Part shown: piece after piece, positions 5,247 to 32,667 of the stretch | Layout of the letters: every line of letters starts with the position of its first letter | Position numbering within the stretch: position 1 is the stretch's first letter | Source: Prorocentrum cordatum | Lineage: Eukaryota | Assembly (NCBI GenBank): GCA_963575745.1 | Contig: CAUYUJ010000225.1 | Location: forward strand, 434,001-498,000 | DNA length: 64,000 nucleotides | Direction: 5' to 3' | The notes under the pieces: model-generated | Database searches by the model: none | What the model saw: only the letters and a program-made list of their open reading frames with translations | What the model was told of the DNA's origin: nothing | Position numbers and translations under genes: made by a program

Positions 5247-5752
5247 CCTCGTTCTGGGTGCTCTTCTGCCACGGGAGCTCCCGATACGATTGGAGACGAT
5301 AAAATGTGATAGCGGGACGGGGGATTGGAGGGGGAGGGAGAAGAAAACGATGAAGGAGAGGAGGCAACGACAGCCCCGATGAAAGCACCGTTTCTTTTTC
5401 CTTCTCCGCTCGGGCAGCGGTCGCCGAGCACGACGGCGCGCGCGAGTCGCCGCCGCTCACGATGCATTGGCAAGGCCTCCGCTGCTGCGGAGGGTCGACG
5501 TTCGGCCGATGAGGCCTCCCTCCGCTGCTGCGGAGGGGCGGCTCCTGTGCGATGGTTCATCTAAGCTTTTCCCAGGGATTGGTTTCGGGGGGGGGTTCGA
5601 CCCACCTCCAAGTCGTGGTCGCGACCTCCCAGTGCCCCTGGCCGCTACTCCACCCACTGTGGCTGCTCCACCAGTCACTGGGGCGTTTGTCGCTGCCGAA
5701 TGCAACTTGCATGTCGCGCCAGGCGGAGTCGACCATGCGGTCCTGCAGCGAG

Positions 5753-5928
5753 GAAAAAAAAAAAAGAAAAAAAATAAAAAACAAAAAAAAAAACAAAAAA
5801 AAAAAAAAAAGAAAAAAAAAAAAAATAAAAAAAAAATAAAAAAGTAAAAAAAAAAAATAAAAAAAAAACAAAAAAAAAAAAAAGAAATAAAAAAAAACAA
5901 AAGAAAAACAAAAAAAACAAAAAAAAAG

Positions 5929-5977
<49 letters not shown>

Positions 5978-5985
5978 AAAAAAAA
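5753..5985. repeat. Degenerate poly(A) tract
   Basis: About 230 nt of almost pure A; may be a sequencing or consensus artefact. Confidence 0.8.
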
Positions 5986-6326
5986 CCTCGCCGCTCGGCT
6001 GTTGCCACTCGCGCTCCTCGCCCTCCGTGGTGCGCCACCGCTCATCCCTGCGCCACTCCCCGTCTGTTGGTTGCTGCCGTGGCGTTTGTGGCCTCCGCTG
6101 CTGCGGGGGCTCTGGCGGCTCGTGGCCGAGGGCAGCGATCGCGTCCGAGATGTAGATGGCGGCGCCGCGCTGCCCTCGCTGCTCCAGCGGCGCAGGCCCT
6201 GGAGATGGGCACTGCGGGGTCGGCTGCCACCTTGGGTGATAAATAATTATTTCTATATCCCCTCCCTGTCAACTCCCGCCCCTTCCCGACACTCATTTCC
6301 TTATGTCATCCCTCGTCCTGCTCAGC

Positions 6327-8384
6327 CTATTCCTCATTCCCTCTCCTCCCTCCTGCCCTCCCCGTGCTCCACCGCCCCTCTCCCCCCCTCCCCCTTTCGA
6401 CCCCCCGCCGCGACCTTCCATCGCCAGCCGCGGGCATGTCGCGGCCGTCGTCCGCGCTTTCGTCTGCCCATCTTGGTGGGCGCCACGCCTGTTGGGCGCG
6501 CTCGTCTTGCTCGCCCCTCTCGCTGCGCTGCTCTGGTGCCTGGCGCTCGTGCTGCTCGGGCGGCAGCGGCGCCCTGAGCGCAGCTGCCAGCTGTTTCTGG
6601 GCGCGCCTGTCTTTCCTCTCTTTGGCTCTCTCCTGCTTCCTCCCCGGCGAACGCACGCTGGCCATGCGCATTTGGAACAGGAGAGGGTAGTGGGCGCCGC
6701 CGTGCCAGCGCCCCTCCACCTCCACGGTCTCTGGCGGGAACGTCTTCTGCAACGCGCGGAAGAGGGTCACCTCGCGATTACTAGAGTAGCGGTGGTCCCC
6801 TCTAGCCTCAGCCTCGGCGCGCCTCAGTTTCTCACTCTCCTTCTCTTGGATCTTGCGTTGGCATTCCTCTGACTGAGTCAGTAAATCCTGGAGGTGCTCG
6901 CGGGCGTCTTTTTTCGGGTAGTAGCAAGAGTAAGGCATCCCTGGGCCTCCGTTCTGGCTGTGGTGCCAGTACGTCGGCTGCGATGATGGGCTGGTGGCGG
7001 CCCCCGCTGCTGCGGGGGCCTCTGCCTTGCTTCTGTTACGGTACCCGATCTCACCGATCACCGACTTGCGTGCGAAGAGCAACCCCGTCTCGTCTCTGTC
7101 GTGCACGGCGCTCAGCGGCCAGCACAGGGTGTACTCGCCAGGCCTGTTGAAAACGAAGATGCCGCAGCTGTCCAAGCACGGAGTGCCGTCGAATCCGCGC
7201 CAGAAGTACGCTGCTGCCGTCTCCAATCGCATGCCTAGACCCCGAAGACTCGGCAGCGTCTGTGTGAGCGCCATGTTGAAATCCCCACAAAGGATGTCAA
7301 CGCTGTTGTCCTGCAAGATGGTCGCCAACCTCGGCCACCACGTCTTGTGAGCCTCGTTAAAGCCTCTGGAATTTTTCGCCGTGTCGCGGTGGAGGTGCTC
7401 CGCGCACGCCCGCACTTTCGAGCCGAAGTGGGCGTAGGTTTGATCGAAGTAGATCTCAACCACCATGATCCTCGAGAACGCTTCCATATTGCGCCCTTTT
7501 GCTGTTCTGTAGTGGCCGTCGACACTCCTTTCCCAGTGGAGCAGCCGCATTTCGTAACACAGATTTGCGCGCGCAGCGATGCACAAGGACTTGTCCTCAC
7601 GCCCGCGCAGGGTCAAGTATTCGTACTCTGGTCGATTCTGGAGCTGTTGGCAATCGCCAACACTCGCAGCGCGACTCCCTCTTGCTGTCGCCATCGCTGC
7701 TGCGGGGGCGACAAAAAGCCCACCGCTGCTGCTGCTTTGGCCCTCCGCTGCTGACGCCCCCGCTGCTGCGGGGGCGTCCGCCTGCAGCGGCGGTGGTTTC
7801 CCTGGCCGCTGTAGGATTGACTCCATCTGCTCCTCACATTCCGCAAAGCTCGCCACGAGAGCAGGGCAATGCCGCAGCTGCAACTCAAGTCTCCGCCGCT
7901 GGTCCGCGTGGTTGGTCTCGCTCGGCATGGGGCCCCAGTTCCCGAACAGGACGGAAAGGTTGCCCACGTTGTCGTTCCGTGGCCTGTTCACGTCAGCCGC
8001 CCTTCTTTCGCAGAAGAATTTTGGCGGGACGGTGTCGCGAAGAACGCGTTCGCGCCGCTCGACGTCGTTGGGCGGCCTGCAGCCCCTAAATTCCTGAGGC
8101 TCTTCGTCATCGCTCGGATCCACCACGGAGTCGCCTGGGCGGGTGCGTATCGTAGAAACTTCTGATCGCGCCGCCGCTGCTGAGCTTGAGACGCCAGGCG
8201 GCGCAGCCCCCGCTGCTGCGGGGGCGCCCTCTGGCACAAAGGCCCAAGGACCCTTCCAGGGTTCTGCCTGACCACCTACAGGTCGCCAAACCTTCCCAGA
8301 TTTCGCTGTGAACACTGCCGTCAGTCGGCCCCGAGGCCCCGCTGCTGCGGGGCCCAATGGGCTGCTGCTGCTGCGCCGCGCCAT
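6327..8384 (-). CDS. Exonuclease-endonuclease-phosphatase (EEP/DNase I-like) domain protein, 685 aa
   Basis: Uninterrupted ORF with EEP-like motifs in canonical order: SVLFGNWG, ASFAECE, EHLH, DILCGDFN, CLDSCGIFV, GAHYPL. Confidence 0.7.
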   Translation of the reverse strand: MARRSSSSPLGPAAAGPRGRLTAVFTAKSGKVWRPVGGQAEPWKGPWAFVPEGAPAAAGAAPPGVSSSAAAARSEVSTIRTRPGDSVVDPSDDEEPQEFRGCRPPNDVERRERVLRDTVPPKFFCERRAADVNRPRNDNVGNLSVLFGNWGPMPSETNHADQRRRLELQLRHCPALVASFAECEEQMESILQRPGKPPPLQADAPAAAGASAAEGQSSSSGGLFVAPAAAMATARGSRAASVGDCQQLQNRPEYEYLTLRGREDKSLCIAARANLCYEMRLLHWERSVDGHYRTAKGRNMEAFSRIMVVEIYFDQTYAHFGSKVRACAEHLHRDTAKNSRGFNEAHKTWWPRLATILQDNSVDILCGDFNMALTQTLPSLRGLGMRLETAAAYFWRGFDGTPCLDSCGIFVFNRPGEYTLCWPLSAVHDRDETGLLFARKSVIGEIGYRNRSKAEAPAAAGAATSPSSQPTYWHHSQNGGPGMPYSCYYPKKDAREHLQDLLTQSEECQRKIQEKESEKLRRAEAEARGDHRYSSNREVTLFRALQKTFPPETVEVEGRWHGGAHYPLLFQMRMASVRSPGRKQERAKERKDRRAQKQLAAALRAPLPPEQHERQAPEQRSERGEQDERAQQAWRPPRWADESADDGRDMPAAGDGRSRRGVERGRGGEGRWSTGRAGGRRGNEE

Positions 8385-9011
8385 CGCTATTAATAATAAT
8401 GTGATTCAGTCGGGAGTTAGCGTCAAGCCGAAACTCCCAGACAACAAACGCGGCGAGGAGGGGGCCGGAGCGAAGAGGGGGAAGACGGGGCGGATAGGGA
8501 AGGAAAGGGCGGGAGAGAGAGAGGTAGAGAGAGAAGAGAGGAGAACAGGAGATAGTGAGTACTACGAATCAAACAAGTTAACTGACAGAGAGGGATCGTT
8601 AGAGCGAGAGAAGCAGAGAGAGATATAAGAGCTAGAGACTCGAGAGAGAGAGAGGGATAGAGAGGGAATAGAAGGAAGAGAACGGCGCGAACACTATCTA
8701 TAGCTAGAGAAGAAGAGAGAGAGGGATAGAGAGAGGAATGATATAATGACCAGGAGAGATCAGGGAGAAGGAGGGGGGAGAGCAGGAGGAGGGGCGGAGT
8801 GATCGACACCCGCGTGGTTTTCTCCCCCTGCCTGCTCTCCCCCTCCTCTCACCTCCTCCCCCGTCCCCCCTCCACCCTGTTTCTTCTGCGCAAGGCCTGC
8901 GCTACGTCCGCGCGCGCACGCGGCACCTCAGTCGCAGGCAGGTGGGAGAGCAGTGGCTGCTGCCCGAACTCACGCCCCGCGCCTCGCCGCTGCTGCGGCG
9001 GGCCGCGCCTC

Positions 9012-12000
9012 TCAGAGGCCCCCAGCTGCAGGGAGCGCAAGCGCCAGGGAGCCAGACAGACGGCGTCGCGTCTCACTGTGCACAAACATGCTGAAAGCTC
9101 TCGGGTTGCCCCCCAAGTACTCGTCTATGACGCTCTGCAACCATGTGGCAAACGTCTCCGGACACTTTCCACCGAAGTCCTCCATGCCAGCGGCGTCCCA
9201 TTCCCGCCGAAACCAGTCAAAATCTGACCGCTGAGCTGCAGAAAGCCCAGAACCCAAAATCGCAAGGCGATTCAGCGCGTCGCACCTCGACGTTCGACCC
9301 GCCACGCCTCCGCAGCTGCGAAGGCCCGCGCCCAGCTCGGATAGCCCGACATGCTTCATCCTGTGTTTGATATCTATGGCTGCCTCTGCGTCTAAGAGTT
9401 TGGCTTGCTGTGTCCTCAGCAGCTTGCGCGCTTTCTTTACGTCGTCCCCCAGGCGGGTTAGCTCTTCTCTGCGCCGCGCCTCGACATCCCGCAGTCGTTT
9501 CTCGTTTCTGAGCGTCGCCTCGCGGGCGTCCTCGTATGCTGCGAGGGCTCGCTGAACCCCAGGATCTTCCTTCGACACTTCACGCACTCGCCTCCGTTCT
9601 TTCCGTCATTGCGTCTCCATGAACGTGGCCCCCGCGATGTCGCCCCAGCTGCGCAACTCCTCAGCGATCGACGAATGCGTTCTCATCAATTCAGACGTCT
9701 GCTCCGCAGTTTCCATACGAGACGTCGACAGGCCAGGCGGTGCCTCCAGCGCGCTCTCCCCCGCCGCTGCTGCGGTGAGACTTTGATTGGCCCATTCGTA
9801 GTCAAACTCGCCAGCGGCGCTCCACCCGTCGTCGCCCTCGCTCCCATCATCTTCATCTCCTTCGAGGGCGTCGACGGAATTGCCACCCTCAGTGCCCCCG
9901 CTGCTGCGGAGACCCTCGGCTGCGTCTTCCGCCCCCTCCATGCCATGCCAAACCTTGTCGCCCTCGTCAAGAGCCGTGTCGTCTCCAAGGTTTGCGAACA
10001 CGTCGTCGCAGTGGCCGCGTCGAGGGTGCGGGAGGACCAATCGCATGATGTCTTTGTAAGTCCATCTCAAGCGCCCCGCCTGTACCTCTTCTTCGACCTC
10101 CGCTACTGCGGCGGCGACCTTCTCACGCATCCCCAACTTCCTCCAGAAATGGCCTGCCTCCTTGCATATGCGCGCGTCCAAGTCCGCATCCCACAGATTT
10201 GCCTTGAAACCAGTGTCCCAGTACCCGTCTGCCGCAGCCAAGTGAAGACTCATTTGGGACATCACTTCCACCATCAAGTCAATGCATTCTAACTTGTCCA
10301 GCTGTGGGACGCACTGGCCCAGCCTCATGGCTCTCAGCAGCGCGGCTCCTTCTCTCTTCATGTACTCGCGCTTGGCGTGTTGATTCAGATGTGTGTCCAC
10401 AGTTTGGAGGATTGGGGTCACGCCGCCCCCGTGCGGGATGAACACGTACCCTCGAGACCAACATAGCTTACTCACAAGCGGGGACAAGTGAGGGCCATGA
10501 TCATCCGCCATCATAAGTCTCCACTCCCGCTGCTGCGGAGGCTCTGGCAGATGAGGGAGGTGGCGGTCCAGGTACGCGAGCACGCACGGTGTCCGGTAAG
10601 ACCCCTTGGTGCTGGTGGTCGCCGACACCCATCTGCCGAACCCTCGGCGCCGAAGGTGTTCGAGCAGGCGCGGCCTCAACTTCTCTCCTCCCCCCTCCGC
10701 CTTGAACATGCACTCCATCGGTGGGGGGGCCTTCTCTCCGCAGTCGACCCTTGTCGCTCATTGTCATGAAATTGGCCGTCCACCGCTCCCGCACCGCGCC
10801 GTGGCACTCCACCAGTGGCACTTCGACCCCCGCTACTGCGAGGGTCCTCACGCCAGCTGATCCTGTTTCATTGTGGTGGAAAGGCGACTGGTCGAAGTTC
10901 TCCATCTCGGGATCCTGCTCGTTGAGTAGCACGCACGCGGCGCGCACCCTAAACACATTCAGCCAGCCTCGCTCGAGGCGCTCTTCCAAGACGGGCAGCG
11001 GGCACTTGTACTTCCTGTTCGGGTACCGCATGCTGAGGCCGTATTCCTTGCGCCAGGAGGCCCACCAGCGCGACCTCAACTCCACGGCGGCGGGTCGCTG
11101 CCCGATCCGCAGCTGCTGCGTGACGTACTCGCTCATGAGCTCCAACGCTTTGGTCTGGCGCATGCTTTGCGTGAACCTTGCTATCTTCGCTGGCTCTCTT
11201 TGGGTACTTCGCAGTCCACTTTTGATCATCTTCCAATCCACACTGTGCCGAATGGAACTCCACCATTCAAACAGAGCTTGCCGCAACCAAGGGCATTTTC
11301 GAGCTGGGCCCTGTCCCTGGTGTGGTATCCTTTTCCGCCCTTTCCACTTCAGGAGGCGCCCCTGCCCGTGCTGCTTCTCGTGTCCCCGCGGCTGCCGAAC
11401 AGCCTCCGCTACTGCGGAGGCGTATTTCGACGACAGTAAAGCCTTGTGCCAGCGCCGCACAACGTGCGTGCGCTTCCTGAGAGGGAGACGGGACATGGAA
11501 CCCCAGTCCCACGCATCCATGAATGAACGCGCCCCTCCATGCGGAAAGCGCTCTCCAGGCGTCCAGCCTAAAGAGCGCATGTGCTCGTCGAAAGCACCCG
11601 CTATCTCCATCCTCGAGCACAGGAGCGACGGGACCACCACGCGCTTCTTGTTCTGGGCGGGGGCTTGGCGCTCGCAGCCGCGGTTCCTGCACCTCAAGAG
11701 CTGCTCCTCCCGCTCTGCGGGCATCAACTCCCGAGCTACGTCCAGGGCGCACGCAGCGTCTGTCAGTCCTGTCCACCATTGGATGGCTTGCACGAGCTCC
11801 TGACAGACAGCCTCGGCGTCGACTTCCACCACGGCCAAGTCCTCAGGTGGCGCCGCCGCAGCTGCGGCGGCAACGCCCTGTGCTCTCGGAGGGGCGGCGT
11901 GGCCAGGCTGCGGGACAAGTTCTTCGTCGTCTAAGGCGCTCTGCAGGCGACGAAGCTCCTGGACGTCATCCTGCGTGGCTTCTTGTGTCAGGACCATCGC

Positions 12001-15000
12001 GTCGAGGAACCGCGCCAGACGCACCCTTTGCACGATGTAGTCCGCGATGTCCTGGCGGGCGGGCATGGAGGAGGGGCAAGGAGACTCGGTGGGGAGGGCA
12101 CGAGGGGAGAGAAGGGCGCGATGGGAGAGGCACGAAGGCAAAATGGGGAGACAAGGAGGGGGAGAGCATGTGGGGGCAGCAGAGATGGAAGCGAAGGATC
12201 AGGGTGGTCGGAGAGAGCAACTGTCCTGGCGGAGCTCCCTGCGAGACTCTCGCGTGGAAACCTCCTGGGTCATCTGCAACATGCAATCCAAACCGCAGTC
12301 CCCGACTGCGACTGTGGACACGACGAACACACCGAGAGCCGAATAGAAACCGTCCACCGTCGAAGCATCTCCCGTGATGTCCACAAAGTCGGTGGAGACG
12401 CCTGCGTTAAAATGATTGCATAGAATCAAAGGATACTCCTCCGACGCGGGGGCCCAGTCCGGTGGCCCCGATTCTCGGGGGACGGCGCAACACGCGATCG
12501 CGTCCGCCGCAGGCTCGCGGGTTAACTCCTCCAGTTTCCACGGCGGCAAGACAGCTTTGCAAAGGTCGACTCTGTTCCGCCCTTCCCACGCGCAGACGCG
12601 CACCTTCCGCAGAAGTGCAAAGATTACGAAAGCAGAATACCCTATCCACTCTCGGCCCCCCCCCGGCCTTCCGCGAATACTGCGCGACAACTTCATCAAT
12701 TTCTCGAAGCACCTCTGGCCTTGTTCTGAAAGTGCCCCTGCAGGCGCCCCCGCTGCTGCGGGGGCGCCTGCAGGGGCAACCGCAGCGCCTGCTGTCGCGG
12801 CTGTCTGTTCACAGGCGGTAACTGCAGCAACTTCCGCCCCTGGAAGCACGGGTTCCGCTACGTCGCGAACAGCAAGCGGGGCGGGTTGGGGGAAAGCGAC
12901 AGGGGCAACCTCCTTTGCTGAGAGAGCTGCTGTTGCCGCGGAGTCCTTCAGGACAGACTCCACTGCGGAAGCGGCCTCGGCGATTGCGTCGGCGCCAGGC
13001 GCGCCAGCAGGACCTACGGACGCCTCCGCTGTGGCGGGCTCTGCAGAAGGGCACGCGCACGGCGCCGCCGCCACTTCAGGAGGAGGCGCGCACGCTTCCG
13101 CTGACGCACCCGTTGCTGCGGGGCCGTCAGAAGAGCCCGCATACGGCTCCGCTGCCACTTCAGCAGGGGCCACGCACGCCTCCGCTGACGGCCCCGCTGC
13201 TGCGGGGCCTTCAGCAGGGCCCATTGCAGCCCTGTTGTGTTAACCTTTTCCGCCCTTTCCACGTCCGAAGCGCCCTGCCCGTGCTGCGTCTCGTGTCCCC
13301 GCGGATGCCGAACAGCCTCCGCTACTGCGGAGGCGTATTTCGACGACAGAAAAGCCTTGTGCCAGCGCCGCACAACGTGCGTGCGCTTCCTGAGAGGGAG
13401 ACGGGACATGGAACCCCAGTCCCACGCATCCATGAAAGAACGCGCCCCTCCATACGGAAAGCGGTCTCCAGGCGTCCAGCCTAAAGAGCGCATGTGCTCG
13501 TCGAAAGCACCCGCTATCTCCATCCTCGAGCACAGGAGCGACGGGACCACCACGCGCTTCTTGTTTTGGGCGGGGGCTTTGCGCTCGCAGCCGCGGTTCC
13601 TGTACCCCAAGAGCTGCTCCTCCCGCTCTGCGGGCATCAACTCCCGAGCGACGTCCAGGGCGCACGCAGCGTCTGTCAGTCCTGTCCACCATTGGATGGC
13701 TTGCACGAGCTCCCGACAGACAGCCTCGGCGCCGACTTCCACCACGGCCAAGTCCTCAGGTGGCGCCGCCGCTGCTGCGGCGGCAACGCCCTGTGCTCTC
13801 GGAGGGGCGGCGTGGCCAGGCTGCGGGACAAGTTCTTCGTCGTCTAAGGCGCTCTGCAGGCGACGAAGCTCCTGGACGTCATCCTGCGTGACTTCTTGCG
13901 TCAGGACCATCGCGTCGAGGAACCACGCCAGACGCACCCTTTGCACGATGTAGTCCGCGATGTCCTGGCGGGCGGGCATGGAGGAGGGGCAGGGAGACTC
14001 GGTGGGGAGGGCACGAGGGGAGAGAAGGGCGGGATGGGAGAGGCATGAAGGCAAAATGGGGAGACAAGGAGGGGAAGAGCATGTGGGGGCAGCAGAGATG
14101 GAAGCGAAGGATCAGGGTGGTCGGAGAGAGCAACTGTCCTGGCGGAGCTCCCTGCGAGACTCTCGCGTGGAAACCTCCTGGTCATCCGCAACATGCAATC
14201 CAAACCGCAGTCCCCGTCTGCGACTGTGGACACGACGAACACACCGAGAGCCGAATAGAAACCGCCCACCGTCGAAGCATCTCCCGTGAAATCCACAAAG
14301 TCGGTGGAGACGCCTGCGATAAAATGATTGCATCGAAACAAAGGATACTCCTCCGACACGGGGGCCCAGTCCGGTGGCCCCGAGTCTCGGGGGACGGCAC
14401 AACACGCGATCGCGTCCACCGCAGGCTCGCGGGTTAACTCCTCTAGTTTCCACGGCGGCAAGACAGCTTTGCAAAGGTCGACTCTGTTGCGCCCTTCCCA
14501 CACGTAGACGCGCACCTTCCGCAACAGCGCAAAGATTACGAAAGCAGAATATCCTATCCACTCTCGGCCCCCCCCCGGCCTTCCGCGAATGCTGCGCGAC
14601 AGCTTCATCAATTTCTCGAAGCACCTCTGGCCTTGTTCTGAAAGTGCCCCTGCAGGCGCCCCCGCTGCTGCGGGGGCGCCTGCAGGGGCAACCGCAGCGC
14701 CTGCGTTCGCGGCTGTCTGTTCACAGGCGGTCACTGCAGCAACTTCCGCCCCTGGAAGCACGGGTTCCGCTATGTCGCGAACAGCAAGCGGGGCGGGTTG
14801 GGGGAAAGCGACAGGGGCAACCTCCTTTGCTGAGAGAGCTGCTGTTGCCGCGGAGTCCTTCAAGGCAGACTCCACTGCGGAAGCGGCCTCGGCGATTGCG
14901 TCGGCGCCATGCGCGCCAGCAGGACCTACGGACGCCTCCGCTGTGGCGGGCTCTGCAGAAGGGCACGCGCACGGCGCCGCCGCCACTTCAGGGGGAGGCA

Positions 15001-17868: not shown

Positions 17869-17902
<34 letters not shown>

Positions 17903-18178
17903 ATCCTACTGGTCCCAACCCCTCCGCCCCGTCCTCGCCAGATTCCGCGAGTTCCTCTTTGTCCTCTAGCGCGCGAGCGCTGGAGAGCCGCAGGCTCGCG
18001 ATCCCCCGCGCGCGCCCTAACCCCTGTCCAGTCGACAGGAACCCGCAGGCATCCACCTCAGCGGTCAGCGCGCCGCTGGCGCGGTGCATGCACCGAGTCT
18101 GTTTGCACAAAAAAAAGCCGTTGTAGCGGTCAGCGCGCCGCTGCTGCGGCGCGCGCCAGCGAGCGGATAACGAGGGCA

Positions 18179-19409: not shown

Positions 19410-19725
19410 CCCTCTGTCCCACAGGGGGGGGGGGGCGCCCTGATCGAACGACCACCCCTGTTTCACAGAGGAGGGCGCGCGGAAACGCACGACCCCACCC
19501 CCTCTGTGACAGAGGGGGTCCCGCGCGTTTCCACCCGACCCCCTCTGTGACAGAGGGGGGTCCCGCGGAAAAACGTGGGACCCCCTCTGTCGCAGAGGGG
19601 GTCCCGCGGAAAAGCGCGGGACCCCCCTCTGTCACAGAGGGGGTCCCGCGGACAAGCGCGGGACCCCCTCTGTCACAAAGGGGGTCGGCCTTGTGTGCTT
19701 CGACCGCCCCCCTGTCCCACAGAGC
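19410..19725. repeat. Internal array of the subterminal palindrome (CCCCCTCTGT-N-RCAGAGGGGG), ~8 copies, core period ~42 bp
   Basis: Copies near 19411, 19456, 19498, 19540, 19582, 19624, 19665 and 19708. Confidence 0.9.
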
Positions 19726-20240
19726 GCCCCGCGAACAGGACGGCAGGACGATGAGCAGGACGACGAGCACGGAGAGAGGAAAACAGGACACGGGAGGGAG
19801 GCGGGAACGGACGAGGGGGGACGGAGACGGAGGCGAGGCGCGAGGGGAGGGCAGGACGAACATAGAGGGAGAGGAGCAGGACGAGACCTGGCAGGGGATA
19901 TGCACCAGGAGAGAGATCTCATGGAGGAAGAGGAGGGGAGGGGACGAGAGGCACTCACATTTTCCGCATTTGCATGCCCTCGCACTTGCTCCATTTCTCA
20001 GCGGCCGCCGCGCCGCCATGAAAATTGACGTACCACCGACACTACTGCGGCTGATGCGTGACCTCTCCCATCCCTGTCTGGTGCTGTTTCTGCTGCCCCC
20101 CCCCCCCCTCCCTCTTCGACCTCCTCTCCCCGCCCTTTTCCTCCTCCCCTCCAGCTGACGGCTGCGGGCTGCGACGGGTGGATCATCGGCCGCTGCCATC
20201 TGCCGCTCCGTTTCGCGCACCCTCCGCTGCTGCGGCGGGA

Positions 20241-22733
20241 TCACACGAAGTGGGCCCCCTGGCCAGGGATTGTCATCTTGCCGCTCTTGGGGGTTTTCCG
20301 TCCCTCCTCGGCGTCCTTCTTCCGTTTCTTCTCCTGCTCTTTCTGCTCCTTTTGCCATGTCTGCTTCTCCTTGTGGGTGTCGGTGGCCCTCTTCTCCTTT
20401 GTGATCTGCAGCATCAGCCGATCTCCGCGCACCAGCGGCACCGTGTTGTGCATGCACGGGACAAGCACGCTGCAGACGCGGAGGGGGGCGCCTGGGTGGC
20501 ACTTTGTCATTGTCTGGAACTCGTGCGGTTGAAGTGCAACGTTGAACTTCCAGTGCTCCTGTCCCTGCACTAGCTGGGCTCGGGCAAGTTCTTCTGGTGT
20601 CATCCTCTCAACTCCCCAAAAGAAGTGCAAGGACTCGGTGCCCCCGAACTTAAACTGGTACGGATTCTCTTCCTGTTCGGCCTCGCCCTGTGCAGGCGCC
20701 GCTGCTGCGGGGGCCGCCTCGTCGAGCTGCGGACCCACGGGCGCCTCGCCCTGCGCAGCCCCCGCTGCTGCGGAGGCCGCTTCCTGCGGCGCGGGCTTGA
20801 GCTCCAGCTCTGGCAATTTGAAATCAGGTTGTGCCCAATATGTTTCCATTTTCTCGACGGGAGTCGGACGTTTCTCACCGACTAGCACCTCCACTGCCCG
20901 CGGATTGCTCGAGACTTTCGGGAAAATCTTCGCGGTGGGGCAGCAAGGGAAGAGCAGCAGTTTCCCCTCGGCGATGTCCCCAGTAGCCACCACATGGACA
21001 CTCTTGGCTTGAACGTCATATTGCATCTGGACGGGTTGGGCGCAAGTGTCCGCGTGACGATGGAAGCCAGTCATGACTTCCGCGATGCTTGCTTGGTGCC
21101 ACCTGCCTGTGTCGAGATTGCCAGACGGAGCCGAAGCGTGCCACGATTTCACTGGGACCACCATCAGGCTGTTCACGGGCTTGGACACTTCAGACATCTG
21201 CCTGTTCAGAGGCTTGTCTTCTTCGTTGAACTCTATCAATACTGGCTGCGGGCGAGAGCCCTCGCCACCTCCGCCGCTGCGAGGGCCAGCGGGTTTCTCG
21301 GGGGCCGCGGGCAACTCGTCGGTCCACGGCGCAGGAGGGAGCGGGAACTCTTTCTGTGCGTTCTTTTCCATTTTCTGCCAGGCCTCGCGTACTTCAGCAT
21401 AGTGCGGACGCACTGTCTCGCACGCGGCCTCCACAACTGCCTCCAGACGAGGTTTGTTAGCCTTCACCCTTACGTACGCCTGGTAGAAGGTGTCCGTCGC
21501 AGTCAGAACCGCCCCCGCGGTCAAAGTCGCGCTCTTCTCCCCCCCGTGGGCCTCCGCTGCTGCGGGGGCCAATATGCGACGGACATGCCCAAACAAAGAA
21601 TTGAGCTCCTGTATCCGACTGTTGCCCTCGCTGTGTCCCCAAGCCGTTTCCGGCGCGGGGCATTGTCCGCGCCTCGGATCTTGCGAGTACGCCCTCATGA
21701 CAAGGGCTACCTTCACATGGGGACAATCTATGGGGAGTTGGTTGAGAACGCCCCAGGTGGCTGGTGCCAGGGAGCGTATTTTGTGATCCACCCAACGTCG
21801 ATCATAATCTAGAATTTGCGGTATGAGCTGCCCTGATGCGGCCCCCACGTTGATGACGAAAGTAAACATGTCCTCGAACCATTTGGCCTTGGCGTACTCG
21901 GGATGTCGTTGCGCGCAAGCCTTGAGAACAGTGTCGTACGAGATATTCACGGGGTGTCCTGTCTCAGATCCGCGCGATGCTTTCTTGCCCGCCGCTGCTG
22001 CGGTGGCGACGAAACCAGCGACGGACGTCAGGACCTCGATTTCGTGAGAGGTCACACCTTTTCCCTGTGGGTCGTTCAGGGCCGCGGAAATGATCGCGGG
22101 GCCTTGCGCGAAGACGGCATCGAAGTGAATTTCCCACGAGAGCACCTCGCAAAGCAAACCGTTATCGAGCACGTCCATGAGTTCTGTGAACTTCGGTGCG
22201 CGACGCTTTTTTGGGATATCCCAGGAACCACCTGTACCTGTCTGGAACTCCTCCAAACCACATCCTTTGTGGTCTTCGGGAATGACCCACACTGCGCCGT
22301 GCTTGAGGTTCAGCAGACCAAAGGTTAGGGTGCAGTGGCTCAGCGCCCCGTAGTTGAACGTTGACAAGCTTGTGTACGCCGAGCGTAGAGCCTCCACGGA
22401 CTTCGTTTTCTGCAAGTTGTGGTCCGCGTGCGCCGTGCACGGCCTACCATGGAGGCGCTCGTAATCGGCCTTCTTCCCCGCAGGGAGTTCCTGAACAACC
22501 ACTGCTTCGTGCTGCGCCTCGTTCAAGAGGAACCTGTCTTTCAGAATGCCACACAGGAGATTAACCACTCTGGCAGCGGAGGGGTACGTCCCACCTCTGT
22601 TCTGCGGGTGGACGCAGATATCCTCCAAGGAAATTTTGGCCTTCAGCCGCTGGCCCTCGGAGCCCTTCAAGGCATAGCGGCTGCGCAACGTGGCGGCATC
22701 ATTCAGGGGACCTGACTTGATGTCCTCGGACAT
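20241..22733 (-). CDS. 830-aa cargo protein with a ParB/Srx-like N-terminus and possible SET-like C-terminal motifs
   Basis: Intact ORF. ISLEDICVHPQNRGG resembles the ParB-N start. VHVVATGDIAEGKLLL and MHNTVPLVRGDRLML resemble SET-fold 'A.rdI..GeeL' strands. Domain calls are tentative. Confidence 0.65.
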   Translation of the reverse strand: MSEDIKSGPLNDAATLRSRYALKGSEGQRLKAKISLEDICVHPQNRGGTYPSAARVVNLLCGILKDRFLLNEAQHEAVVVQELPAGKKADYERLHGRPCTAHADHNLQKTKSVEALRSAYTSLSTFNYGALSHCTLTFGLLNLKHGAVWVIPEDHKGCGLEEFQTGTGGSWDIPKKRRAPKFTELMDVLDNGLLCEVLSWEIHFDAVFAQGPAIISAALNDPQGKGVTSHEIEVLTSVAGFVATAAAAGKKASRGSETGHPVNISYDTVLKACAQRHPEYAKAKWFEDMFTFVINVGAASGQLIPQILDYDRRWVDHKIRSLAPATWGVLNQLPIDCPHVKVALVMRAYSQDPRRGQCPAPETAWGHSEGNSRIQELNSLFGHVRRILAPAAAEAHGGEKSATLTAGAVLTATDTFYQAYVRVKANKPRLEAVVEAACETVRPHYAEVREAWQKMEKNAQKEFPLPPAPWTDELPAAPEKPAGPRSGGGGEGSRPQPVLIEFNEEDKPLNRQMSEVSKPVNSLMVVPVKSWHASAPSGNLDTGRWHQASIAEVMTGFHRHADTCAQPVQMQYDVQAKSVHVVATGDIAEGKLLLFPCCPTAKIFPKVSSNPRAVEVLVGEKRPTPVEKMETYWAQPDFKLPELELKPAPQEAASAAAGAAQGEAPVGPQLDEAAPAAAAPAQGEAEQEENPYQFKFGGTESLHFFWGVERMTPEELARAQLVQGQEHWKFNVALQPHEFQTMTKCHPGAPLRVCSVLVPCMHNTVPLVRGDRLMLQITKEKRATDTHKEKQTWQKEQKEQEKKRKKDAEEGRKTPKSGKMTIPGQGAHFV

Positions 22734-22954
22734 CTATCCAGGCGCCCCCGCTGCTGCGGGGGCAGCTTCCCAAACAGATGCTCCGCGACGGTTGCCCCCG
22801 CTGCTGCGGGGCCCCGCTTAAAGCGCGAGTGCCTGTCGCGCGCGCGGACAGAAGGAGGGGCCTCACGGATCCGCGGCCTGCCCGCACTTGAGCAAAAGGA
22901 GAAGGAGAGGAAAGGCAGATAGAGGGAGAGAGACAGAGAGAGAGAGAGAGAGAC

Positions 22955-23007
<53 letters not shown>

Positions 23008-23019
23008 GAGAAAGAGAGA

Positions 23020-23119
23020 NNNNNNNNNNNNNNNNNNNNNNNNNNNNNNNNNNNNNNNNNNNNNNNNNNNNNNNNNNNNNNNNNNNNNNNNNNNNNNNNN
23101 NNNNNNNNNNNNNNNNNNN
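23020..23119. other. Assembly gap (100 N)
   Basis: Run of n. Confidence 1.
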
Positions 23120-24461: not shown

Positions 24462-24653
24462 CTATCCAGGCGCCCCCGCTGCTGCGGGGGCAGCTTCCCA
24501 AACAGATGCTCCGCGACGGTTGCCCCCGCTGCTGCGGGGCCCCGCTTAAAGCACGAGTGCCTGTCGCGCGCGCGGACAGGAGGAGGGGCCTCACGGATCC
24601 GCGGCCTGCCCGCACTTGAGCAAAAGGAGAAGGAGAGGAAAGGCAGATAGAGG

Positions 24654-24737
<84 letters not shown>

Positions 24738-26948: not shown

Positions 26949-27110
26949 CTTCTCCTTCTCCTTCTTCTCCTCCCTCTCACCTCTGTCAGGGTTGCTCTGT
27001 TCGTCCTGGGGCGGCGTGGGGCTGCAGAGGTCGACGGCGTCGCGCCCGTCGCCCTCAAGCTCCTCCTGGGCTCCGTGCGCCCCCGCTGATGCGGAGGCTG
27101 CTGCTTCAGA

Positions 27111-28970
27111 TTATGTCTCCGCCTCCTCCCGGTCTCCGTGCGCCTCCGCTGCTGCTGAGGCTGTTGCTTCGGGTTCTGTCTCCGCCCACTCTCCCCGCTG
27201 TTTTTCCCACTTGGCTTCCCGCTTCCGATCCTTCTTCCTGGCCGCGGCGCCTTTGCCAGACTTCCTGTTCTTGGCTTCTATAAAAACGAACCATGTGTGG
27301 CAATGTTCCGTGAGGCGGTTCGCATCCTGGGCCTTGTGGATCACCCTGTGCAAGTGCGGCCAGTCATATGTATCCTGCTCCTTGCGCTCCGCGTCCGTGA
27401 GCCTGACCCAGGTCGGACGCGCCACCCAATCCAACTGGCGGTACTGCAGGCTGGTGAGGAGCCTCCGCTGCTGCGGAGGCTGGGAATCCTGATTCAACCA
27501 GTGCGGCAGATCAGGCTGCCCGCCCGCAGGGCACTCGCGAACCTGAGCGGGGCCAAGAATCACGATGTAGTGCGGGTGCGTCACGTGACAACCTTTTGTC
27601 GGACACCACAAAGCCAAGCCGAGTACGCCTGTACCAGACGCGCCGCAACTTCTGAGCAGCTCCGAAAGATCCTCCCTGCCTGCGTCAAAGATCCCAGCGA
27701 GAATACGCACTCGGTTCCACAACACCAGGTTCCGCAGCCCGTTGCGGAAGTTCTCGGGCCACGGGTGTCCCGCGAGGCTCGTCTGGTGTCGGAAGAACAC
27801 GCCCCCCACTGCTATGGAGAGTTTGCCTTCCTTTGCTTTCGGATTGTGAGCCACCGCTGCCAGGGTCACCGACCAGGCCTGAACCAGGAACTTCCCGTGG
27901 CAGTGCCAGCGAAGCACCTCGCACTGCTCGACGCGCTCGGGAACCCAGAGGAGAGCCCCGACGCACTCGCGCGCGACCTCCCCGTGGAAGCCACTTTGGC
28001 GGATGAGATCGTCGAGATGTTGCTTCCGCCGATCGCGATTGATGCGTGCACCAGGCTCGAAGGAGACGAAGACGACCCCTTCGCGCCTGTCCCTGACAGC
28101 TGCGACCCAATCCGACAGGGAGGCGCCCGCGCGCAGGACGAGGGAAGCAAAAGCCAGATTCACGCGCGCCTCTGTCTGCCCCTCCTGCACCTGGTCTTCG
28201 TCGTCGTACAGCAGGGGCACAAGAGGCTTGGAATGGCTCGGGCCGCGCTCTTCCAATGGGAAGTGCGGGCGGCCTTCCTCTGGGAAGCCCTCTTGGACAG
28301 GAAGCGCTGGCGACCGAGCCTTCGAGGTCAAGGCGAGAGTCTTGATCGCGCGGGCCCCCGCTGCTGCGGAGGAGCTTTCACGCAGTTTGCGTGCTGCGAT
28401 CAGAGCCTGCCGCTGTCGCCAATTAGTCGTGCAGGGAGATCTCGGTCTCGGGTCATCGGAGCCACCCTGTCCAGGCTCGATTACCACTGTGGCGGCGCCT
28501 GGCTCCACGGATGCCCCCGCTGCTGCGCAAGCCGCCTCCTTAGCCGTTATGACTACAAGGCGGTTGGCGGCGGCCGTTAACTTCCGCGCATCTTCGATCA
28601 GGCCATTCTGCATCAATTCCTGAGCAACCAGCAGGCTCTGCGAAACGCTTTCCTGGGCACCAGACATCGACGAAAACAATGACCGAAGTTTCGTTGCAAC
28701 CTCCCCCCCCGCTGCTGCGGAGGCCGGTGCTGGATCTGCCATTCCATGCGGAACTGCATCAGGGGCCTCCTCTGGCAGCCCCCGCTGCTGCGGAGACTTC
28801 GGCAGAGGTTCCTGCGCGGCTCCAGTCGCGCCAGGCTGCTCCATGCCCTGGGCCGCTCCCGTCGCGGAGGCGGGCGGGCGCGGCGGGGGGCAGACCTGCA
28901 ACGGCTGCGGATTCACTTTATCGCAATGCCATCCCTCCCTGCGCTCAAATGACTTTTCCCCTTGCGCCAC
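27111..28970 (-). CDS. 619-aa cargo protein; C-terminal half looks like a degenerate EEP-fold paralog
   Basis: Intact ORF. HPWPENFRNGLRNLVLWNRVRILAGIFDAGREDLSELLRSCG parallels HKTWWPRLATILQDNSVDILCGDFNMALTQTLPSLRGLG of 6327..8384. Confidence 0.6.
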   Translation of the reverse strand: MAQGEKSFERREGWHCDKVNPQPLQVCPPPRPPASATGAAQGMEQPGATGAAQEPLPKSPQQRGLPEEAPDAVPHGMADPAPASAAAGGEVATKLRSLFSSMSGAQESVSQSLLVAQELMQNGLIEDARKLTAAANRLVVITAKEAACAAAGASVEPGAATVVIEPGQGGSDDPRPRSPCTTNWRQRQALIAARKLRESSSAAAGARAIKTLALTSKARSPALPVQEGFPEEGRPHFPLEERGPSHSKPLVPLLYDDEDQVQEGQTEARVNLAFASLVLRAGASLSDWVAAVRDRREGVVFVSFEPGARINRDRRKQHLDDLIRQSGFHGEVARECVGALLWVPERVEQCEVLRWHCHGKFLVQAWSVTLAAVAHNPKAKEGKLSIAVGGVFFRHQTSLAGHPWPENFRNGLRNLVLWNRVRILAGIFDAGREDLSELLRSCGASGTGVLGLALWCPTKGCHVTHPHYIVILGPAQVRECPAGGQPDLPHWLNQDSQPPQQRRLLTSLQYRQLDWVARPTWVRLTDAERKEQDTYDWPHLHRVIHKAQDANRLTEHCHTWFVFIEAKNRKSGKGAAARKKDRKREAKWEKQRGEWAETEPEATASAAAEAHGDREEAET

Positions 28971-30337
28971 TCTGCTGCTCCCACTTCTGAACTACCTCAT
29001 CCCTTCTACCTCTGCCTGCTCCCTCCTCTTCCTGTTCAGTCCTCCCTCCTCCCTCCACCGCGCTCATTTCTCCTTGCTCCCTTCTCTGCTCCTCCTACGT
29101 GGGGCGTTTCACGACAACGACGACGACGACGCCGACGAGAACGATGACCACGACGGCGACAACGAGGGCAACGACGACCACGACGACGACGACGAGGACG
29201 ATGACCACGACGGCTACCAGCGACGACGACTAGCGACGACGACGATCGACGACGACGACGCCGACCACGACGACGACGGCGAGGACGACAACGAGCGACG
29301 ACGACGACGACAACCGACGCCGACGAGGAACGACGACGACGAACGAGGACGACGATTACGACGACGAGATGACGAAGGATCGAAGATCGAACCTCGAAGT
29401 GCGAAGCTTCGAAATTCAAACTTCGATCTTCGAACTCCGAACTTCCAGCTTCTAACTGCGAACGTCGCTGGGGTGCCAGGGATGGACTGGGATGGAGGGA
29501 AAATGGGAAGGAAAAGCGAGGAAGCGGGAGAGGAAGTTGGAGGAGAACGAACAGGCGTGGAGCGACGAGGAACGGGCGGCGAGGAGCCGACGTTGAGGGC
29601 GGCGGGATGGGGGGACAGGGAGGAGAGGGGAGACTTCAAGACGAAAATCGCGCCACGGCGCCTGCGCGCGCGCTCCCGATCTCGGCGGCCGACGCGCGCG
29701 CCCCTGCAGACATGCAACGCGCCCTTAATTCGAGCCCCGCTGCTGCGGAGCCACCTACTCCACAACCAAATCGTCTGGGGAGCTGTTCGGACCCCAAACT
29801 ACTAGTTCTTCAGCCACTCGGCTCTTGCGAGTCCGCCCTCATGACAAGGGCAACCTTCACATGGGGACACTCAATGGGGTGTTGATTGAGAACGCCCCAT
29901 GTGGCTGGTGGCAGGAACGGACGAGGGGGGGCGGATAGAGGAGCAGGACGAGCACTGGCAGGGGATATGCACCAGGAGAGAGATCTCATGGAGGAAGAGG
30001 AGGGGAGGGGACGAGAGCCACTCATAATTAAGCGCACGCAGGCCCACGCACGTGCTCCATTTCTCAGCGACCGCCGCGCCGCCATGAGAACTGTCGTACC
30101 ACCGCCGCTAATGCGGCGGATGCGTGACCTCTCCCATCCCTGTCCTGCGCTGTTTCTGCTACCGCCCTCCCCCCTTCCAGCCAAGCTCGGGTTTCATGCT
30201 CGGAGACGGGCGCGGCTGGCGGCTCTTAGTGCGGGTGCGCGTGCTGCCTCCAACTCCTCATCCCCCTCCTCCTCCTCTCCTCATCCCCCCTCCTCTTCCT
30301 CCTCATCCTCCTCTATCGGCCCAGCTCCGATCGCCGC

Positions 30338-30637
30338 TCAGCTCTCCTGGTGCGGCTGGCGGCAAAAGTACCGAATATTGCCTGGGATGTCCTTCACCTT
30401 CTTCTTCGACATCTCAAGCATCATCTTGCCCATCTCCTCGGTACGGCGCGCCTCCCCCATCATCTGCCGCGCCTGGTCGACGAGCATCTGGCCCTTCACT
30501 CCAACGGCGCGTGCGTGGCGGCAACGATTGCGCCACTGGAGAAACCGCGCCACCATGGTCGCCCAGTGCCAAACACTGCCCTCCGTCGTGATGAGCTCGA
30601 AGTCATCGACGTCGTACTTGCCCGCGATGCTCGCCAT
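30338..30637 (-). CDS. Small hypothetical protein, 99 aa
   Basis: ATG-started, normal composition, same strand as the other cargo ORFs. Confidence 0.35.
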   Translation of the reverse strand: MASIAGKYDVDDFELITTEGSVWHWATMVARFLQWRNRCRHARAVGVKGQMLVDQARQMMGEARRTEEMGKMMLEMSKKKVKDIPGNIRYFCRQPHQES

Positions 30638-31521
30638 AGCGGCGCAAAAACCGCGAAGGAGCCTCCTCTGGCAGTCCCCGCTGCTGCGGAGACTTCGGCA
30701 GAGGCTCCTGCGCGGCTCCAGTCGCGGAGGCGGGCGGGCGCGGCGGGAGGCAGACCTGCAACGGCTGCGGCTTCACTTTATCGCATTTCCATCCCTCCCT
30801 GCACTCACATGGCTTTTCCCATTGCGCCAGTCTGCTGCTCCCACTTCTGAACTACCTCATCCCTTCTACCTCCATCTGTACCCTCCTCTTCCTGTTCAAT
30901 CCTCCCTCCTCCCTCCACCGTGCTCATTTCTCCTTACTCCCTTCTCTGCTCCTCCTACGTGGGGCGTTTCACGACAACGACGACGACGATGACCACGACG
31001 GCGACAACGAGGGCGACGACGACCACGACGACGACGACGAGGACGATGACCACGACGGCGACCAGCGACGACGACTAGCGACGACAACGACCGACGACGA
31101 CGACGCCGACCACGACGACGACGGCGACGACGACAACGAGCGACGACGACAACGACAATCGACGCCGACGAGGAACGACGACGACGAACGAGGACGACGA
31201 TTACGACGACGAGATGACGAAGGTTCGAAGATCGAACCTCGAAGTGCGAAGCTTCGAAATTCAAACTGCGACCTTCGAACTCCGAACTTCAAACTTCGAA
31301 CTGCGAACTTCGCTGGGGTGCGCGGGATGGGGGGACAGGGAGGAGAGGGGAGACTTCTTAACGAAGATCGCGCCACGGCGCCTGCACGAGCGCTCCCGAT
31401 CTCGGCGGCCGACGCGCGCGCCCCTGCAGAAATGCAACGCGCCCTTCATTCGAGCCCCGCTGCTGCTGCGGAGCCATCTACTCCGCAACCAAATCGTCTG
31501 GGGAGTTATTCGGTCCCAAAA

Positions 31522-32667
31522 CTACTGTTTGCCACCCGCTGCTGCGGACGCCGAGGGCCTGGTGCTGGACGCCGCGGCCCCGCTGCTGCGGGGCCCCTGA
31601 GAGGGCGTCGGCCTCCCCTTCTCTCTGGCGGCGTCGAACTTGACCTTACGCTCCACACCGAGGTCCTTGTGCCAGCGAAAAGTTCCTGACCCGTCGCTCC
31701 CGCCCAAACCCGCGGTTGGTGGCCTCACCGTGTCCGCGCGGGGGACGAGGGGCAGAGCTTCGACCTTCCTGTCGCCCCAGTGCGGGTGTAAACGGACGCC
31801 TGTCCCGTCGTCGCGGTGCAACACGAAATCCCACATCGGCAGCTTCACTTTCACCCGCTGCCCCGCGAACTGTCGCGCGCGCACAATACTCTGACGCATG
31901 TGGTCGTAGCTGTTTGGCCGGACTTCGAGGGAACAGCCGATCAGAGCCCCGCTGCTGCGGGGCCCCTCCACGACCTCCCTGATATCTTCCTCCCTGAGCG
32001 TCGCCGCCATCTCTTGCCACCGCCAAGGGACTTCCTCGTCGCTTTTGAAACCAAAGCTCGTCCTCGCACCGTGGTCGCAAACAGCGACCATGGTGGGCTC
32101 CGCATTGTCAAACCACTTGGCTTCTGACTCGAACGGGGCAGTTGGGTCTTCATTCAGATGGCGCCACCATTTCAACGCTTGATTGTGTTGCTGAAACGAA
32201 GTGCCGAGCCTCTCTTCATAACTCAAAAAATAATTAACATCAAACTTCTCAAAATCCTGGGGCCCGCGCGCCGCCGCCGCTGCGGTGGCGCGGGGCTCCT
32301 GCGCCGCAGGCGCGGCTCGGGATCCCGACCCCTCTCCTGAAACTGTGTTCCCAGGTTCTGGTGAGTTTCGGAGGGCAGCCCTCACGAAATTATCGAATTC
32401 GGGCATGCCGAGACCAGGGGCGCGGGGGCTCACAACGCTAAGCGCGGCGAAGCGAGACGGCCGTTGAGGCGAGACCGCCGCCGCTGCTGCGGCGGCAGGG
32501 CCATCGCGCCATTTGGCGTCCTCCGTTGGCGTGTGCCCGTCTTGTCGCCAGTCTCTCCAACCCCTCGCTGACCAATCATGGCCGTCCTCCCAGCCACGCC
32601 AGCCGCTGCTGCGGCTATCCCACCATCCTCCCGCGCCATCCCATGTGTATCCGCCTGCATCGCCCAT
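31522..32667 (-). CDS. Hypothetical cargo protein (~381 aa from MGDAGG), Trp-rich N-terminus
   Basis: Intact ORF with a globular-looking core (WDFVLHRDDGTGVRLHPHWG); first gene inside the right TIR. Confidence 0.65.
   Translation of the reverse strand: MGDAGGYTWDGAGGWWDSRSSGWRGWEDGHDWSARGWRDWRQDGHTPTEDAKWRDGPAAAAAAAVSPQRPSRFAALSVVSPRAPGLGMPEFDNFVRAALRNSPEPGNTVSGEGSGSRAAPAAQEPRATAAAAARGPQDFEKFDVNYFLSYEERLGTSFQQHNQALKWWRHLNEDPTAPFESEAKWFDNAEPTMVAVCDHGARTSFGFKSDEEVPWRWQEMAATLREEDIREVVEGPRSSGALIGCSLEVRPNSYDHMRQSIVRARQFAGQRVKVKLPMWDFVLHRDDGTGVRLHPHWGDRKVEALPLVPRADTVRPPTAGLGGSDGSGTFRWHKDLGVERKVKFDAAREKGRPTPSQGPRSSGAAASSTRPSASAAAGGKQ

Follow-up and report, generated by a model that had tools for sequence, protein, structure and literature searches.

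The window analysed here is a 64-kb stretch of DNA from Prorocentrum cordatum (64,000 nucleotides; positions 434,001 to 498,000 on the forward strand of contig CAUYUJ010000225.1, assembly GCA_963575745.1), and it contains an element of about 28 kb that is bounded by perfect 32-bp terminal inverted repeats (TIRs) and that has every one of its long open reading frames (ORFs) on the minus strand. Dispersed through this element, inside ORFs as well as in leaders and trailers, is a short G+C-rich hairpin of constant orientation, whose field and longest member are as follows.

5469..32624, minus strand: hairpin field of 62 sites, GCCNCCGC-AGYA-GCGGNGGC, with an 8-bp stem and a 4-nt loop
12733..12778, minus strand: longest hairpin, with a perfect 21-bp stem (-55 kcal/mol as RNA) and a duplicate at 14645-14690

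Distribution and structure of the hairpin

The exact 12-mer CCGCTGCTGCGG occurs 50 times on the plus strand of the window and not once on the minus strand, always within positions 5479-32614, compared with a mean of 0.03 and a maximum of 1 in 100 dinucleotide-preserving shuffles. When one mismatch is allowed, 17 further plus-strand sites are obtained together with a single minus-strand site, which is a self-complementary variant at 11856, and no site with 0 or 1 mismatch is found outside the TIRs on either strand of the window. An earlier sequence-only reading had described some 60 copies or close variants, essentially always on the plus strand and with none seen outside the TIRs; its account of strand and confinement holds and the motif is real, but the tally is corrected from about 60 to 50 exact copies, to which 12-17 variants are added. 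The loop variant TACT is present at three sites (10100, 11406 and 13319), which together with the 50 TGCT sites gives 53 sites that collapse to 46 distinct 32-mers; because the element has internal duplications, the copies are not all independent.

Perfect hairpins with a loop of 4 nt and at least 6 bp of stem number 92 in the window, 28 of them with TGCT and two with TACT in the loop, and all 30 of these lie inside the element. Moreover, a covariance model built from 67 distinct sites of the window and its relatives, and run over the window with filters off, finds 62 minus-strand sites at E<0.1, all within 5469-32624; its plus-strand matches are weaker readings of the same places, and its sole match outside the element (49449-49481) is weak, with an E-value of 0.17. 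The terminal 359 and 623 bp of the element carry no copies, and the 36 kb of flanking DNA has none either, but also no recognisable gene (77 ORFs, without a Pfam match). Rfam 15 at gathering score gives no match over the whole window on both strands, in which no tRNA or tmRNA was found either, and a viral contig database scanned for GCCGCAGTAGCGGC returned 118 loci that are single chance matches (54 forward, 64 reverse), with no locus holding two or more matches and no dense cluster. An assembly artefact is rejected as the source of the motif, which is present in six independent contigs and in about 200 database proteins.

On the coding strand the motif reads CCGC-AGCA-GCGG, with an AGUA loop at three sites, and the 67 distinct sites yield the sense consensus GCCNCCGC-AGYA-GCGGNGGC; the sense loops comprise AGCA (50), AGUA (3), AGCU (1), AGCG (1), and AUCA (1). 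Outside the 12-mer, Watson-Crick pairing at positions +1 to +4 is seen in 40, 61, 55, and 46 of the 67 sites, against 24, 53, 37.5, and 31.6 when the 3' flanks are permuted, and from +5 outward pairing equals the background, the typical stem being 8 bp. Over a 10-pair structure, 83.7% of cells are paired versus 74.0±1.0% in shuffles, and the covariation score of 0.285 (0.119±0.014 in shuffles) is reached by none of 500 shuffles and stands at 0.06-0.12 when the partners are slid by 1-3 columns, although some rows of the alignment are orthologues or paralogues, which inflates these tests. Part of the stem is a fixed palindromic consensus, yet there is real covariation at +1, +3, and +4. The stems listed by eye in the sequence-only reading, including the perfect 21-bp one, are present, and its proposal of complementary, covarying flanks is borne out with statistical significance, except that the typical stem has 8 bp and much of it is fixed. 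Typical hairpins fold with -18 to -28 kcal/mol as RNA.

A palindrome of this kind might alternatively be a duplex site to which a dimeric protein encoded by the element binds, with GCCNCCGC as the half-site and an asymmetric spacer of 4 bp, comparable to multiple copies of parS or of an operator. The pairing of 74% already reached by permuted controls (83.7% observed) would suit such a site, as would a weak ParB-like hint in the 830-aa protein of the element; but covariation at +1, +3, and +4 is unexpected if half-sites are read independently, a symmetric dimer would not fix one orientation of the spacer, and the stems reach 9-21 bp at some sites, so that we hold this explanation to be very unlikely.

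Two paralogous hairpins, at 29737 and at 31457-31471, differ in that the loop region of one contains an additional GCT unit (CCCCGCTGCTGCGG versus CCCCGCTGCTGCTGCGG), and the core can thus also change by triplet slippage.

Coding context and conservation

The main ORFs of the element and the hairpins attached to individual genes are located as follows.

20241..22733, minus strand: 830-aa ORF with 4 in-frame hairpins
22744..22813, minus strand: two leader hairpins of the 830-aa gene, whose 12-mer cores stop 15 and 65 nt short of the ATG
20220..20239, minus strand: hairpin behind the 830-aa gene, beginning 2 nt after the TGA stop
9609..12198, minus strand: candidate DDE-type transposase gene, in two overlapping frames (10504-12198 and 9609-10757)
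10100 and 11406: AGUA-loop hairpins in the transposase gene, with the third (13319) in the duplicated copy 13017-14111
6330..8405, minus strand: 692-aa ORF with 4 hairpins, all in the Ala frame
27114..28991, minus strand: 626-aa ORF with 4 hairpins
31525..33054, minus strand: 510-aa open frame, first ATG at 32667, with 5 hairpins

Ten long minus-strand ORFs (15.8 kb) contain 34 copies, with one site in an ORF overlap counted twice, which corresponds to 33 distinct sites among the 53; about 16 sites lie in no long ORF, including two just upstream of the 830-aa ATG and one behind the stop of that gene. All three frames proposed by the sequence-only reading occur, but unevenly, with 26 of the 34 copies encoding x-Ala-Ala/Val-Ala-z, 3 encoding PQQR, and 5 encoding RSSG. 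When the proteins are held fixed and the codons are redrawn from the element's own usage in 1000 trials, only 0.23±0.48 copies are obtained, with a maximum of 3, versus the 34 observed; for example, Ala-Ala-Ala is encoded as GCAGCAGCG in 28 of 57 cases. These results support selection, or some other process, acting on the nucleotides rather than on the peptide, as had been proposed from the letters, while the companion idea that the peptide imposes no constraint was overstated, because the preponderance of the Ala frame indicates that the peptide constrains where hairpins can sit.

The reverse possibility, in which a P/S-Ala-Ala/Val-Ala-G/E linker is the selected entity and the regularity of the DNA merely follows, can draw on the 26 Ala-frame copies and on one site whose peptide is conserved and falls within a helix predicted with confidence. 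Codon resampling effectively refutes peptide-level selection, and it is further opposed by the copies that use the other two frames or lie in leaders and trailers outside the coding sequence, as well as by flanking residues that covary according to base-pairing rules and not chemistry (described below); this explanation is accordingly regarded as extremely improbable.

Relative to genes, with the first in-frame ATG taken as the start codon, a hairpin centre lies within 70 nt of the start in 6 of 7 independent genes (permutation p=0.0006) and within 70 nt of the stop in 4 of 7 (p=0.09), and hairpins follow the stop of two genes by 2-17 nt. Six metagenome contigs (among them L001-L003, L005, and L006) that encode 830-aa-type proteins of 60-66% identity carry 31 sense copies and 0 antisense copies, and several of these copies are orthologously placed (leader, post-stop site, and two internal sites); the leader hairpins at 22744..22813 are conserved in L001-L003 and L005, and the post-stop hairpin at 20220..20239 in L002, L003, and L006. 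Stem differences at orthologous positions include one compensatory change from C-G to A-U (L001 versus L005), and turnover of sites is seen where the C-terminal part of the 830-aa gene is of low complexity. Downstream of the 830-aa gene, L006 carries a homologue of the frame that is found in the window at 31525-33054, some 9 kb upstream of that gene; the gene order therefore differs, yet all hairpins stay in the sense orientation. The polarity noted earlier is strict, but it is indistinguishable from sense orientation to genes, with all long ORFs on the minus strand. An analogy once drawn with Chi, KOPS, and uptake sequences is not supported, since the orientation matches the sense of every gene and the sites cluster at start codons, which points to the level of the gene or its transcript.

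Distant homologues of the 830-aa protein and most of 37 transposase homologues repeat x-Ala-Val-Ala-z instead, which is the AGUA-loop version in the same frame; for instance, GCCTCCGCAGTAGCGGAGGC at window position 11406 encodes ASAVAEA. In 150 representatives, [PSTA]-AVA-[GEDAV] is found 287 times versus 8.3 expected by shuffling, with at least two AVA motifs in 74 of the 150, and the AAA form 53 times versus 12 expected, whereas A-T-A, the reading of the antisense orientation, is found 11 times versus 5.1 expected. AAVAA is the commonest pentapeptide across the whole family. A third gene family with the motif is that of the 626-aa ORF, in which 4 homologues show the same peptides (P0199-P0201 carry SAAAG, PQQRG, and RSSG). 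The residues flanking the AVA motif pair as the +1 base pair predicts (P-G, S-E/D, T-V, A-A), and Watson-Crick-compatible flanks number 173 versus 102 expected among 386 AVA motifs from 198 proteins (chi-square p=1e-16). Some positions keep the hairpin down to 33-41% protein identity. Judged from sequence, the hairpin is a hallmark of a large and diverse element family with clade-specific loop variants; relatives of the 830-aa protein are absent from a viral contig database.

Of 21 motif clusters in the alignment of transposases, 20 fall in columns occupied by residues of at least 11 of the 20 sequences, the remaining cluster being in a lineage-specific insertion, and in the 830-aa alignment 5 of 6 clusters fall in columns occupied in other homologues; paralogous copies in the window differ by substitutions or by one GCT unit. 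Because the motif columns are also occupied in other homologues, the sites arise and decay by substitution in place and not by insertion. Insertion of a tiny mobile unit is rejected on the ground that the presence of the motif adds no length in alignments, and no target-site duplication is evident beside the sites in a 32-nt alignment of the 67, for which no formal analysis was made.

A further explanation is that the hairpin is a functionless, self-perpetuating palindrome made and homogenised by template switching or short-tract gene conversion, with the loop variants as a product of concerted evolution. Loops are homogeneous within lineages (50 AGCA versus 3 AGUA here, and mostly AGUA in distant relatives), sites turn over in low-complexity tails, tandem 21-nt and 84-nt units contain the hairpin, and the mismatches resemble simple decay by transition, all of which would be in keeping with this origin. 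It leaves the strict polarity of a 4-nt loop unexplained, however, because palindromes would be made in either orientation alike and the antisense one would encode Ala-Ala-Ala as well; furthermore, some sites occupy the same alignment column down to 33-41% identity, sites are placed near start and stop codons, and 12-20 bp is very short for gene conversion. On balance, a by-product of this kind appears unlikely.

The carrier element and its genes

The ends of the element and a second repeated motif are given below.

5120..5151, plus strand: left TIR, 32 bp, perfect; TA precedes the element if it starts at 5124
33206..33237, minus strand: right TIR, 32 bp, perfect; TA follows the element if it ends at 33233
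5164..5216, no strand assigned: subterminal palindromic repeats CCCCCTCTGTCACAGAGGG of the left end, a motif distinct from the hairpin
33120..33201, no strand assigned: subterminal palindromic repeats CCCCCTCTGTCACAGAGGG of the right end, 3 copies
19498..19684, no strand assigned: internal block with 5 copies of the subterminal palindrome CCCCCTCTGTCACAGAGGG

TA stands on both flanks if the element is taken as 5124-33233; the adjacent two bases (GC/GC) also pair, and as a result the boundary of the element, and hence a TA target-site duplication, is ambiguous. The carrier appears to be a transposon of the TIR type with a DDE-type transposase, in agreement with the earlier proposal of a transposon. 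The model of the candidate transposase (pLDDT 70.9) has retroviral integrase cores, SETMAR, and Mos1 domains as its top Foldseek rows at E>=0.36; the Pfam hints of its family are weak (DDE_3 in 2 of 20 members, E 0.12; HTH_psq in 2 of 20, E 0.009), DDE-like motifs in the family were read by eye, and a PDB profile search with the transposase gave no match. The division of its gene between two overlapping frames suggests a frameshift in this copy; the switch lies within 10504-10757, around the conserved EGPP...CMFKAEG junction of the homologues, where a C/G run read wrongly in sequencing is the alternative to a true frameshift.

Among the other genes, annotation is sparse. No Pfam family is matched at E<=0.01 by 18 element ORFs, and nothing relevant at E<=10 by 12; PDB sequence searches of the element ORFs gave no match. 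The 830-aa ORF has homologues of 79% to 25% identity, and a profile search with it reaches at least 1258 representative clusters at E<=0.001, which form a family without Pfam annotation. Its structural model is poor (pLDDT 58.7), with no Foldseek match at E<=0.001; residues 556-777 resemble many SET domains at Z 6-7.8, below the level that the tool calls safe, and the N-terminus bears an HPQNRGG motif together with weak SspE and ParB-N fold rows. The database protein P0202 joins sequences like the 692-aa ORF (6330-8405) and the 626-aa ORF (27114-28991), and reflects either rearrangement of an element copy or a chimeric gene prediction.

Internal duplications, both tandem and dispersed, include 11315-13223 with 13230-15135, 21392-23008 with 23120-24732, and three shorter pairs. 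A 100-N assembly gap (23020-23119) lies exactly between two 97.7% identical copies of the 830-aa gene region, and the tandem duplication beside it may be partly an assembly product. Several of the duplication boundaries (13223/13230, 15135, 17061/19177, 28761/30657, 31529) are, by eye, 3-20 nt from a hairpin, and palindromes may promote template switching or duplication at segment boundaries. The left part of the element also contains an A-rich tract of about 235 nt on the plus strand (5751-5986; T-rich on the gene strand), to which a shorter tract at 17117-17242 is similar. In the flanks there are large tandem arrays at 33481-34496, 38580-39530, and 46697-49020, with periods of roughly 45-50, 100, and 90 bp, and many GAG/CCT-type microsatellites.

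Contigs from sequencing runs over 19700-22950 are numerous, fragmented, and of high depth, as would be seen with a multi-copy family, and a run guessed to be RNA contributes one 46-nt piece over this region; none of 40 listed variant positions there falls within a 12-mer core, where only about one is expected. Sequence words of the 830-aa gene occur in marine, plankton, estuary, freshwater, and urban metagenome runs and in three organisms, with no RNA run among those listed. Degenerate telomere-like repeats (CCCTAA/CCCTTA/CCCAAA) are present at L002:1-120 and L003:60-120, about 400 nt upstream of the 830-aa gene, and to judge by these repeats relatives of the element may sit beside chromosome ends.

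Interpretation and comparison with known systems

The reading that we tentatively favour, with a rough probability of 0.4, is that the hairpin is a single-stranded stem-loop read in the sense orientation, most likely in element transcripts, as a protein-recognised tag; we infer that the folding molecule is RNA and its reader a protein, and likewise what the reading would do. On the coding strand of every gene of these large TIR/DDE transposons, a G+C stem of about 8 bp with an AGYA tetraloop would be kept so that a trans-acting protein, whether the element's or the host's, could read the loop and the loop-proximal CCGC/GCGG pairs, with the outer stem pairs free to covary beneath. The tag-bound protein might then control the fate of the mRNA through the use of start codons, the protection or processing of ends, or evasion of silencing.

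A transcript tag is favoured because strict sense orientation is seen in three gene families, of which two show it in many lineages; because the sense AVA form is found 287 times versus 11 for the antisense-frame ATA; because copies occupy leaders, ORFs, and trailers and are enriched at start codons; because the motif is maintained at the nucleotide level with covariation of the flanking residues; and because the hairpins stay sense in L006 despite the changed gene order. An invariant loop and inner four pairs, combined with covarying outer pairs, are as expected for a stem-loop that is read by a protein.

Several observations weigh against this reading. The folding energies are equal on both strands, and G.U is not significantly preferred over A.C, either at the DNA level (30 versus 14 at +1 to +4, with 25.8 versus 16.5 in the null) or at the protein level (38 versus 40, with 37.7 and 45.4 expected). 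No RNA-binding domain is recognised among the element ORFs, nor any Pfam domain at all, and the start-codon statistic depends on the choice of the first in-frame ATG. Moreover, all genes of the element are on one strand, and being sense to transcripts is therefore confounded with being polar along the element in all of the DNA available (the window and the contigs of its relatives).

An alternative is a hairpin that acts as single-stranded DNA, either in the non-template strand during transcription or in a single-stranded intermediate of the element, and is bound by a structure-specific protein (a nuclease, a recombinase, or a chromatin writer), or else serves as a recombination site that shuffles gene modules. 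G.U and A.C mismatches are both costly in DNA, in line with the missing preference; transversion-type mismatches are depleted and both transition types are at expectation, a pattern that resembles plain decay of perfect pairs and speaks mildly for DNA rather than RNA. The different gene orders of the window and L006, the duplication boundaries that by eye lie 3-20 nt from hairpins, and the weak ParB/SspE-like and SET-like fold hints of the 830-aa protein, which would be DNA or chromatin functions, all lean the same way. By contrast, TIRs and the putative DDE-type fold would imply double-stranded cut-and-paste transposition, no HUH/Y1, tyrosine, or serine recombinase is matched among the element ORFs (though no domain is recognised in them at all), and the enrichment at start codons lacks an obvious rationale at the DNA level. 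This role is possible, if somewhat improbable.

The preferred transcript tag can also be extended to the whole family, such that giant DDE transposons of aquatic protists would tag every one of their own mRNAs with an AGYA stem-loop and a dedicated reader would separate these from the mRNAs of the host, enabling selective translation, protection, or escape from silencing; the clade-specific AGUA and AGCA loops would then record the co-evolution of tag and reader. We consider this family barcode doubtful; if true, it would be a self-recognition system of a eukaryotic DNA transposon that operates via doubly constrained coding sequence.

If the hairpin is functional, the coding sequences of an entire family of eukaryotic DNA transposons would carry a cis-code, with dozens of oriented hairpins per element that are long conserved and have lineage-specific variants. 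Questions would follow on the means by which such elements label, control, or shield their transcripts or DNA, on the identity of the protein reader, and on how protein-coding and structural constraints are reconciled. The covariation of flanking residues (P...G, S...E/D, T...V, A...A) is a protein-level footprint of base pairing, and the motif is a sensitive marker for finding a large unannotated element family in plankton genomes and metagenomes.

A search of the literature found nothing like the hairpin, with supplements and subscription literature outside its reach, and the 12-mer strings were met only in papers that by title or abstract seem unrelated. Passages of one study deal with Helitron, including its hairpins, and with Fanzor, and not with this motif (PMC3627910). 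We regard the hairpin as a putatively functional cis-element of a type so far undescribed among the DNA transposons of eukaryotes; each of its nearest analogues lacks at least one defining feature. To our knowledge, comparable dispersed structural signals occur in RNA viruses and bacteria and not in eukaryotic cut-and-paste elements.

Chi, KOPS, and DUS are unstructured words found genome-wide in bacteria and oriented to replication or uptake. The hairpin is likewise over-represented and strand-polarised, but it is a covarying structure oriented to genes and confined, within the 64-kb window, to one element. Repetitive extragenic palindromes (REPs) are extragenic, genome-wide in prokaryotes, and stabilise mRNA ends, and Rickettsia palindromic elements (RPEs) are insertions of at least 100 bp that can be in-frame. 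Like REPs, BIMEs, and RPEs, the motif is a short G+C-rich palindromic hairpin in many copies; unlike REPs and BIMEs it is not extragenic (33 of 53 sites lie inside ORFs), and unlike both classes it is 20 nt long, born by substitution, strictly sense, and tied to one family of mobile elements. The RAYT (Y1/HUH) transposase of REPs is not matched here, among element ORFs that matched no Pfam family at all.

The hairpins of attC sites, of IS200/IS605, and of the Helitron 3' end are read on one strand and lie at the ends of elements or cassettes, together with Y1/HUH or tyrosine recombinases. The resemblance of these hairpins to the present motif lies in one-strandedness and compensatory stem changes, whereas the present element has some 60 internal sites, mostly within ORFs, along with TIRs and a putative DDE-type enzyme. 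In its perfect 32-bp TIRs the carrier agrees with the IS630/Tc1/mariner/pogo superfamily.

Among RNA signals, yeast Rnt1p, an RNase III, recognises hairpins with AGNN tetraloops, and its measuring cut needs a stem of 14-16 bp. The sense loops follow the AG-N-N rule on a G+C stem, with one AUCA that breaks it; the typical 8-bp stem is too short, however, only 2 of 53 sites (the 21-bp hairpin and its duplicate) qualify, and the organism is not yeast. The 3' stem-loop of histone mRNA is a single copy in sense RNA, just after the stop, where it is read by SLBP. A short G+C stem, a 4-nt loop, and a post-stop placement at two genes are shared with it, but the sequence differs and many copies per gene occur here, also in ORFs and leaders.

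The packaging signals of single-stranded RNA viruses (MS2, STNV, and the pregenomic RNA of HBV) are many dispersed stem-loops on one strand, in any coding frame. They require an RNA genome and a capsid that binds the loops, and no capsid-like Pfam match, which would support the packaging role suggested in the sequence-only reading, is found among the element ORFs, which matched no Pfam family at all. The carrier here looks, unlike theirs, like an integrated TIR/DDE DNA transposon, and the inner four stem pairs are invariant; with the packaging signals the hairpin nevertheless shares a common loop motif, variable and covarying stems, and dispersal along one strand, all of which are seen in the window.

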